The notes: generated by a model from the letters alone, not told the origin. A stretch of 64,000 nucleotides of DNA from an uncultured Candidatus Binatia bacterium (GCA_965215605.1 OZ244070.1:3584001-3648000); one strand, 5' to 3'. Positions 41,849 through 42,307 are shown, numbered from the stretch's first letter. Program-made: numbers and translations.

Positions 41849-42307
41849 ATGTCGATGCCAGATGTGGGGGACAAGGCCCCCGAGTTCAGCCTGCCGGTGT
41901 CCCGGGACGAGAAGGTGTCCCTGAGCGACTACGCGGGCAAGAAGAACGTCGTGTTGGCGTTCTATCCGCTGGATTTCACCGGCGGCTGAAAGCAGGAACT
42001 AACCAACTTCGAGGCTGACAAGGCCAGCTTCGAAGCCAAGGACGCTCAGGTTCTGAGCGTGAGTGTCGATTCGGTGTTCGCCCACAAGGCGTTTGCGGAG
42101 CAGATGGGCGGGATCAGCTTCCCGATGTTGTCGGATTTCTTTCCTCAGGGGGAGGTCTGCAAGCAGTACGACTGCCTGCGTCCCCAGGGCTTTCCCAAGA
42201 GAGCCGTCTTCATTATCGACAAGCAGGGGACCGTGCGGTATGCCAAGCTCTACGAGGGCGGCATCCCGGAGAACCAGGACCTGCTGGCCGAGCTCGACAA
42301 GCTCTAG
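41849..42307 (+). CDS. Peroxiredoxin (AhpE/BCP-like), probable selenoprotein (TGA at 41987-41989 read as Sec)
   Basis: [38 protein letters not shown][TGA][32 protein letters not shown] in one frame; TGA sits in the Cys slot of PxxxTxxC. Confidence 0.88.
42007..42035 (+). promoter_or_regulatory. Putative SECIS-like hairpin
   Basis: CTTCGAGGCTG-acaaggc-CAGCTTCGAAG: 11-bp stem with one G-U, starting 17 nt after the in-frame UGA. Confidence 0.55.

Follow-up and report, generated by a model that had tools for sequence, protein, structure and literature searches.

A candidate selenocysteine-containing peroxiredoxin of the AhpE type in Candidatus Binatia, with two conserved hairpins downstream of its in-frame UGA codon

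A reading frame of Candidatus Binatia that would encode a complete peroxiredoxin is interrupted by a single TGA at the position of the catalytic residue, which raises the question of whether this codon ends translation, is a scar of gene decay, or is read as an amino acid. The frame lies on the plus strand of a window of 64,000 nucleotides, by which we mean the whole stretch of DNA analysed. It runs from the ATG at 41849 to the TAG at 42305-42307 (41849..42307, 152 codons plus the stop) and follows a Shine-Dalgarno-like AAGGAG (41835..41840, plus strand), located 8 nt 5' of the ATG by direct sequence reading. The sole in-frame stop before the TAG is the TGA at 41987-41989 (plus strand), codon 47 of the frame. 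A sequence-only reading of the same DNA had described this single frame, its ribosome binding site (RBS) and its one TGA, and all of these were confirmed on the sequence; an in-frame TTG at 41846, immediately 5' of the ATG, was absent from that description. A standard ORF listing of the locus contains only the C-terminal part, as had been reported, namely 42059-42307, with a GTG start and 82 amino acids. The interpretation that we favor, with a probability of about 0.88, is that this is a gene for an AhpE-type peroxiredoxin of 152 residues in which the peroxidatic position, codon 47, is a UGA at which selenocysteine (Sec) would be inserted.

The assignment to the AhpE-type AhpC/TSA proteins draws on the translation, on Pfam, and on a structure model. 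The translated frame (below, prx) has a P40-x3-T44-x2-U47 motif, reading DFTGGU around codon 47, and an R118 within KRAVFIID; across 62 aligned sequences R118 never varies, and T44 and C/U47 hardly do. The Pfam profile AhpC-TSA (PF00578) matches with 133.8 bits at a cut-off of 26, and residues 6-131 of the protein cover positions 1-123 of the 124 in the profile. PrxU (NF040737) is the best NCBIfam model, but its 80.5 bits fall below the cut-off of 270, and the identification of the protein as a PrxU equivalog was therefore rejected; the Prx-SUH model NF045827 gives 43 bits (cut-off 298). The top sequence matches in the PDB are all AhpE of M. tuberculosis (E 7e-27). In that alignment U47 stands opposite the active-site Cys of the AFTGIC motif of AhpE, and R118 opposite the AhpE Arg; the earlier placement of the TGA at the peroxidatic position of a PxxxTxxC motif is thus borne out, both here and by the TGA column in related loci.

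An AlphaFold2 model built from the 62-row alignment has a pLDDT of 97.5 and a pTM of 0.93. Its helix 45-56 starts at the U47 turn, which gives the peroxidatic residue a Prx-type placement, and its top fold matches are AhpE chains (TM 0.93, rmsd 1.4-1.5 A, 36-37% identity over 152 columns). By closest sequence and fold the product is an AhpE-type peroxiredoxin, and its activity is predicted on these grounds. Two further cysteines are common among 66 distinct orthologues (Cys104 in 60, Cys109 in 61), but some members of the clade, such as the one in locus L062, lack one or both. They were therefore rejected as obligatory resolving cysteines, and since they are common but not universal, a resolving Cys does not seem to be required.

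How the TGA is distributed among relatives bears directly on whether the gene is intact. A genome scan in which each species was represented once confirmed 373 relatives. The 80 best loci were retained, most of them from Candidatus Binatia metagenome-assembled genomes (MAGs); the closest is 96% identical. One of the 80 (L069) ends before codon 47. The homologs had been proposed as a check for alternation between Cys and TGA at this column, and in the 79 loci that span it the codon is TGA in 72, TGC in 6 and TGT in 1. All loci among these 79 with at least 54% identity carry TGA, and the seven Cys-form loci, from Anaerolinea, Micromonospora, Planosporangium and Ktedonobacteraceae, are all at or below 49% identity among the best 80 of 373. 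The lone TGT belongs to a second prx paralogue in L070: this contig bears a truncated Sec-type prx at its end and, about 3 kb apart, the Cys-type paralogue (TGT, 42% identity, ~3261-3551).

A frame with one in-frame stop, from which ORF calling recovers only a fragment, is also what a nonsense mutation in an ordinary Cys-peroxiredoxin or an assembly error would leave behind. Close relatives with TGC or TGT had been named as the sign of such decay, and this is not what we see, given that Cys appears only among the distant loci. Among the best 80 of 373 relatives, 72 independent assemblies, with proteins 48-96% identical, carry this TGA. The 66 distinct full-length orthologues are free of indels and vary only synonymously on both sides of the TGA. 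The ATG is kept in 66/66, and the RBS and the neighborhood are conserved as well. The residues G7, A10, L15, L25 and L36 are invariant in the 66 sequences and are each written with 4-6 different codons. Since residues that never change, before and after the TGA, use varied synonymous codons, the frame appears to be translated under purifying selection. The decay explanation is effectively refuted, and the earlier impression that both halves are intact, including the Arg of RAVFIID, stands. Since the same TGA column and the core of the first hairpin described below recur in 72 other loci, the co-occurrence of codon 47 TGA and a hairpin is more than chance.

If the UGA were a true stop, the C-terminal part might still be made as a separate polypeptide from the GTG at 42059, where the 82-residue ORF begins. 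We regard this as very improbable. The Prx fold and active site need one chain, with T44 and U47 in the N-terminal and R118 in the C-terminal part, and it is the joined chain that yields the model with pLDDT 97.5. Moreover, codons 48-70, which the GTG product would lack, are conserved as protein, and the GTG lies within the second hairpin (HP2), with no RBS seen 5' of it. A genome-wide reassignment of TGA is excluded, since TGA is the stop of 30 of 49 window genes and prx alone among the 49 has an internal stop.

The public records of these proteins reflect the difficulty of the codon. NCBI and ENA list the relatives as a truncated 'redoxin domain-containing protein', and 78 of the best 120 matches in the protein collection are fragments of 83-105 aa that start after column 47. 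The other 42 of these 120 reach the column, 36 with C and 6 with W; the four closest full-length matches among them (71-76% identity) all have W. This W is the result of a gene caller reading the TGA through. Two other matches at 48-52% identity (P0027 and P0038) also have W at the peroxidatic column, which suggests that this Prx group has other lineages with TGA outside the Binatia clade. A quick tree search, with a weakly supported backbone, places the Binatia-type Sec forms in one cluster (28 rows, SH-aLRT 89), with Sec forms of Tectomicrobia and Poribacteria nearby and one Clostridia Sec form among Cys forms; on this tree the Sec label requires at least 3 changes.

The TGA column, the coding conservation on its two sides and the AhpE alignment together strongly support the proposal, already made in the sequence-only reading, of a 152-aa Sec-containing peroxiredoxin. 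The codon might instead be decoded independently of selenium, through near-cognate insertion of Trp or Cys or some other local recoding, with the hairpins merely boosting read-through. In keeping with this, no Sec machinery was found in the window or its flanks. An NCBIfam profile scan of the 58 window ORFs detected no selA, selB or selD, ARAGORN found no tRNA-Sec in the window or in 80 flanks of 20 kb, and Rfam at gathering thresholds reported SRP RNA and tRNA-Ser only in the whole window, with no SECIS or tRNA-Sec family. A crude screen for in-frame TGA, requiring coding-type GC3 on both sides of the codon, revealed no other selenoprotein genes in the 1.3 Mb of window and flanks; its 47 candidates are prx genes and adjacent same-frame gene pairs, and the four that were checked by NCBIfam matched no selenoprotein. 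The two hairpins, moreover, each fit the published SECIS model only in part, and W is placed at column 47 by some gene callers. However, that W is the caller's choice of code and gives no evidence for Trp insertion. Column 47 is the position of the peroxidatic residue, where only Cys or Sec is workable and where the Cys homologs have Cys. Without use of Sec, a Cys codon would be the simple solution, yet TGA is kept in 72 loci among the best 80 of 373. The apex of HP2 resembles a known SelB-binding loop, and a putative selenate transporter is a frequent neighbor of prx. We therefore consider decoding without selenium quite improbable, and the gene, so read, indicates that Binatia use selenocysteine.

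What RNA signal would direct this decoding? An 11-bp hairpin starting 17 nt past the TGA, at 42007-42035 with the loop ACAAGGC, had been pointed out earlier and is indeed present. This hairpin (HP1, 42007..42035, plus strand) has 11 bp, one of them G-U, and a 7-nt loop; on its own it folds at -16.0 kcal/mol with a z of -4.2, and 0 of 200 shuffles fold as well. Its conserved core is the 7 bp formed by 42007-42013 with 42029-42035, all paired in 70 of the 73 Sec genes (the window included), and the Cys genes, a DNA control of only 7 sequences, have 3-6 of the 7 pairs. One core pair, between columns 28 and 54, varies in a compensatory manner (CG 28, UA 21, UG 15, other 1 in 65 distinct sequences); it joins the first base of codon 54 (Phe/Leu) to the third, synonymous position of the Glu62 codon. 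Only about half of the family retains the upper 4 bp, the loop sequence is variable, and the most distant Sec forms have a weaker core, with 5-6 of the 7 pairs in L072 and L073.

For comparison we used the bSECIS model as given in the Fig. 2 legend of PMC13188914, which specifies an apical loop of 3-9 nt, an upper stem of 4-16 bp with a minimum free energy of at most -7.5 kcal/mol, a G within the first two bases of the loop, after which G or U is usual, and 16-37 nt from the UGA to the apical loop. In loop size (7 nt), stem length (11 bp) and energy HP1 is within these limits. Its loop lies 25-28 nt from the UGA (28 in the window), inside the prescribed range in all 62 distinct sequences compared. 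A G in the first two loop positions is found in 33 of the 62. All four criteria hold in 29, with loops that include GACCGCAA; 24, the window among them with its ACAAGGC, fail the G rule alone, and 9 have loops that are too large. The suggestion that HP1 is a lineage-specific SECIS variant thus survives only in part: the loop varies across the family and fits the model in 29 of 62 sequences, and another hairpin, one whose loop is of the G-U kind, had been missed.

This second hairpin, HP2 (42042..42060, plus strand), consists of 8 bp and the loop GUU (42050-42052) with the apex CAGGUUCUG; its sequence is ACGCUCAG-GUU-CUGAGCGU, and it is better conserved than HP1. Alone it folds at -10.8 kcal/mol (z -4.5). 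Across 65 distinct sequences, pairing holds in 98.7% of the cells of HP2, with changes on both sides in 4 of the 8 pairs. All eight pairs are present in 66 of 73 Sec genes and seven in the other 7, and the seven Cys genes have 2-6. The loop is GUN in 73/73 Sec genes and so satisfies the G rule of the bSECIS model, whose limits on loop (3 nt), stem (8 bp) and energy are satisfied too. The loop begins 60 nt after the UGA, outside the range of 16-37 nt. The changes in the stem are compensatory, CAA being accompanied by UUG in 3/3 cases and GAU by AUN. In distant Sec forms the stem has the compensatory version GCTCAA/TTGAGC, and the distant forms of Poribacteria and Clostridia have GCCCAG/CUGGGC and ACCCAG/CUGGGU. 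Since most pairs never vary in the main clade, the HP2 covariation rests on few lineages.

Constraint at the RNA level is also visible in codon use. Across codons 48-70, synonymous variation is suppressed in the 66 distinct orthologues, in a genome of 66% G+C: within HP2, A66 is GCT and S70 is AGC in 66/66, and among the other codons F54 is TTC in 38/38 and N53 is AAC in 55/56. The joint covariation score of the two hairpins, 0.170 as compared with at most 0.109 when partners are slid by 1-3 columns, was reached by 0 of 500 shuffles, a control that is inflated because the sequences are phylogenetically related. Parts of the stems are dictated by the peptide, FE...FE giving TTCGAR twice and QVL giving CAG-GTN-CTG. 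In 1.30 Mb, the motif CTCAGGTN[CT]TGAG has 67 occurrences in prx genes and one in a truncated prx, and it is absent elsewhere; being confined to prx, it offers no independent view of what SelB recognizes. RNAalifold proposes in addition an outer helix between 41981-41987 and 42040-42046, in which GGCG-CU (two Gly codons and the U of the UGA) pairs with AG-GACGCU; its GGCG/CGCU part is nearly invariant and shows no covariation. A lower stem of CUGAGC (codons 51-52) with the GCUCAG of HP2 was considered and rejected, as no Leu codon varies more than codon 51 and the window itself reads CTAACC there.

In the window, then, neither hairpin conforms to all four bSECIS criteria; each fails one. With HP1 folded, its 29 nt would drop out of the path from the UGA to the HP2 loop, which would become 17+6+8 = 31 nt and fall within the range of 16-37 nt. 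We lean towards HP2 as the SelB-binding element, with the folded HP1 serving as a structured spacer, over a reading in which HP1 alone is the SECIS and HP2 either has an accessory role, for example in pausing or stability, or simply follows from the AQVLS peptide. This second reading is somewhat unlikely, though several observations speak for it: the HP1 loop lies at the usual distance of 25-28 nt from the UGA, 29 of 62 distinct sequences satisfy the four criteria with loops such as GACCGCAA, and the HP1 core is kept with one compensatory pair. Against it, HP2 is the more strictly conserved of the two and has its G-U loop in every one of the 73 Sec genes, and in the most distant Sec forms it is HP2 that is kept, by compensatory changes, while the HP1 core is weakened (L072, L073).

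The choice of HP2 as the SelB-binding element also agrees with its likeness to the fdhF SECIS of E. coli. The fdhF apex GCAGGUCUGC and the HP2 apex CAGGUNCUG are nearly the same, both being small loops with a G and then a U, closed by CA/UG pairs; the G and U of the fdhF loop, matched in HP2, are presumably the SelB contacts. Depending on which pair is taken to close it, the HP2 loop exceeds or falls short of that of fdhF by one base, and a bulged U is not apparent. In E. coli K-12 the fdhF loop, GGUC, follows the UGA after 18 nt, whereas that of HP2 is 60 nt off, with a conserved hairpin between.

The gene neighborhood was compared across the same loci. In the window, prx ends a same-strand run of xerD, an M50 peptidase-like gene, trpS, scpA, scpB, rluB, nudix and prx, the housekeeping genes further upstream being unconserved in loci below 82% identity. 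Directly 5' of prx is a gene for a Zn-ribbon Nudix hydrolase (41257..41805, plus strand; Pfam NUDIX and Zn_ribbon_Nudix). In 67 of the 71 Sec loci with enough flank a Nudix gene stands directly upstream on the same strand (median gap 65 nt), as it does in 43 of the 47 below 82% identity; it is a probable operon partner of prx. Downstream, a strong terminator-like hairpin at 42334..42367 (-32.3 kcal/mol, z -5.0), absent from the list of a consensus terminator scan, separates prx from a convergent gene for a GcvT-like folate-binding protein (42437-43531, minus strand; Pfam GCV_T and GCV_T_C). A convergent GcvT-like gene is found in 59/67 Sec loci (37/44 below 82% identity). It is followed by a gene for a 254-aa protein that matches no family in Pfam or NCBIfam (43612-44376, minus strand), present downstream of prx in 49/63 Sec loci (31/40 below 82%). 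Beyond it lies an ABC transporter (44577..47105, plus strand) composed of a putative selenate-binding protein (TIGR04553), an ATPase (ABC_tran) and a PhnE-type permease (BPD_transp_1). Two minus-strand ORFs noted here, 'hyp89' and 'hyp117', were rejected as shadows of the ATPase gene.

The binding protein in the window scores 337.8 bits with TIGR04553 (cut-off 250), a model named 'putative selenate ABC transporter substrate-binding protein', and the selenium link is that of NCBI's naming. A TIGR04553 gene lies within about 5 kb downstream in 38 of 59 Sec loci, and in 16 of 36 below 82% identity. None of the four neighbors (Nudix, GcvT-like, 254-aa, TIGR04553) is found in the 6 loci whose matched prx homolog is a Cys form. 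The fuller picture, a bipartite SECIS in which the far HP2 binds SelB across the HP1 spacer, together with a place of the gene in a conserved selenium-linked cluster of Nudix, Sec-Prx, GcvT-like protein, 254-aa protein and putative selenate ABC transporter, is offered tentatively, and we would give it somewhat less than even odds.

Several other features of the window were recorded. A tRNA-Ser(CGA) gene (49210-49299, plus strand), syntenic in 21 of the closest loci, and a small SRP RNA (49553-49650, plus strand) lie about 7 kb downstream of prx. Two sets of molybdenum hydroxylase genes and a chlorohydrolase/SsnA-like amidohydrolase occupy 3485-7198, 16547-18034 and 54215-57939; they match Se_dep_XDH, Se_sel_red and Se_ssnA, models tied to selenium-dependent molybdenum hydroxylases, always below cut-off. 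A molybdenum-binding large subunit of the xanthine dehydrogenase family appears there as two ORFs, 4677-6161 and 6185-7195 (plus strand, 495 and 337 aa), in different frames, one matching the N-terminal and the other the C-terminal half of the same profiles; the split subunit (4677-7195) is either a natural split or a frameshift.

The proposed sequence of events is as follows. An RNA structure within the 75 nt 3' of the UGA would recruit SelB with Sec-tRNA(Sec), and read-through of the UGA would add the C-terminal two thirds of the protein, with the catalytic Arg118. In the site formed by P40, T44, U47 and R118, the U47 selenolate would attack the peroxide, and an external thiol reductant, as we infer, would regenerate U47. 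JGI names close relatives of the protein for a mycoredoxin/mycothiol reductant; since the host is not an actinobacterium, this reductant seems unlikely for prx. The gene and the upstream Nudix hydrolase gene are probably co-transcribed, and may form a pair directed at oxidative damage.

At least 72 species-level genomes, mostly of Candidatus Binatia and of MAGs labelled Deltaproteobacteria, carry the putative Sec peroxiredoxin, and public protein sets contain it as stubs of 83-105 aa or as sequences whose active site shows W. These gene calls would be repaired by a family model of its own that includes a rule for Sec. If the two-hairpin signal is true, search rules for a SECIS that expect one hairpin 16-37 nt from the UGA would overlook or misread genes of this kind.

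Sec-containing peroxiredoxins with TxxU or PxxxTxxU motifs are a long-established family of prokaryotic selenoproteins, as a table and the text of PMC13188914 describe. Table 1 of PMC1794560 gives 12 such genes and 5 Cys-to-Sec events, and 43 genes are given for the Sargasso Sea in PMC1088965. The clade described here adds an AhpE-type branch to them. It shares with the family, including PrxU of Eubacterium acidaminophilum, the replacement of the peroxidatic Cys by Sec in PxxxTxxU, and with bacterial Sec peroxiredoxins a SECIS-type structure in the coding region just after the UGA. In contrast to PrxU, its members are of AhpE type, have 152 aa and a DFTGGU motif, and center on Candidatus Binatia MAGs. 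Prx-SUH (NF045827) and the Prx-like UxxC selenoproteins share the thioredoxin fold and the AhpC/TSA superfamily, but have CxxU or UxxC motifs where the window protein has TxxU. The best match among solved structures, the 1-Cys peroxiredoxin AhpE of M. tuberculosis (Rv2238c; 1xxu, 1xvw, 4x0x, 5id2), agrees with the window protein in length and in the Arg and has a motif of the AFTGxC type; the window protein, at 36-37% identity, has Sec in place of its Cys, and actinobacterial Cys forms fall on a different branch of the tree from the window-type Sec forms. A literature search by title and abstract gave nothing relevant on the use of selenocysteine in Binatia/Binatota or on a Sec-containing AhpE-type enzyme, and the supplements of surveys may already list the clade. 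TxxU Sec peroxiredoxins are thus known; the unusual feature here is that two conserved hairpins follow the UGA, one of them with an apex like that of fdhF but at a distance outside the canonical range.
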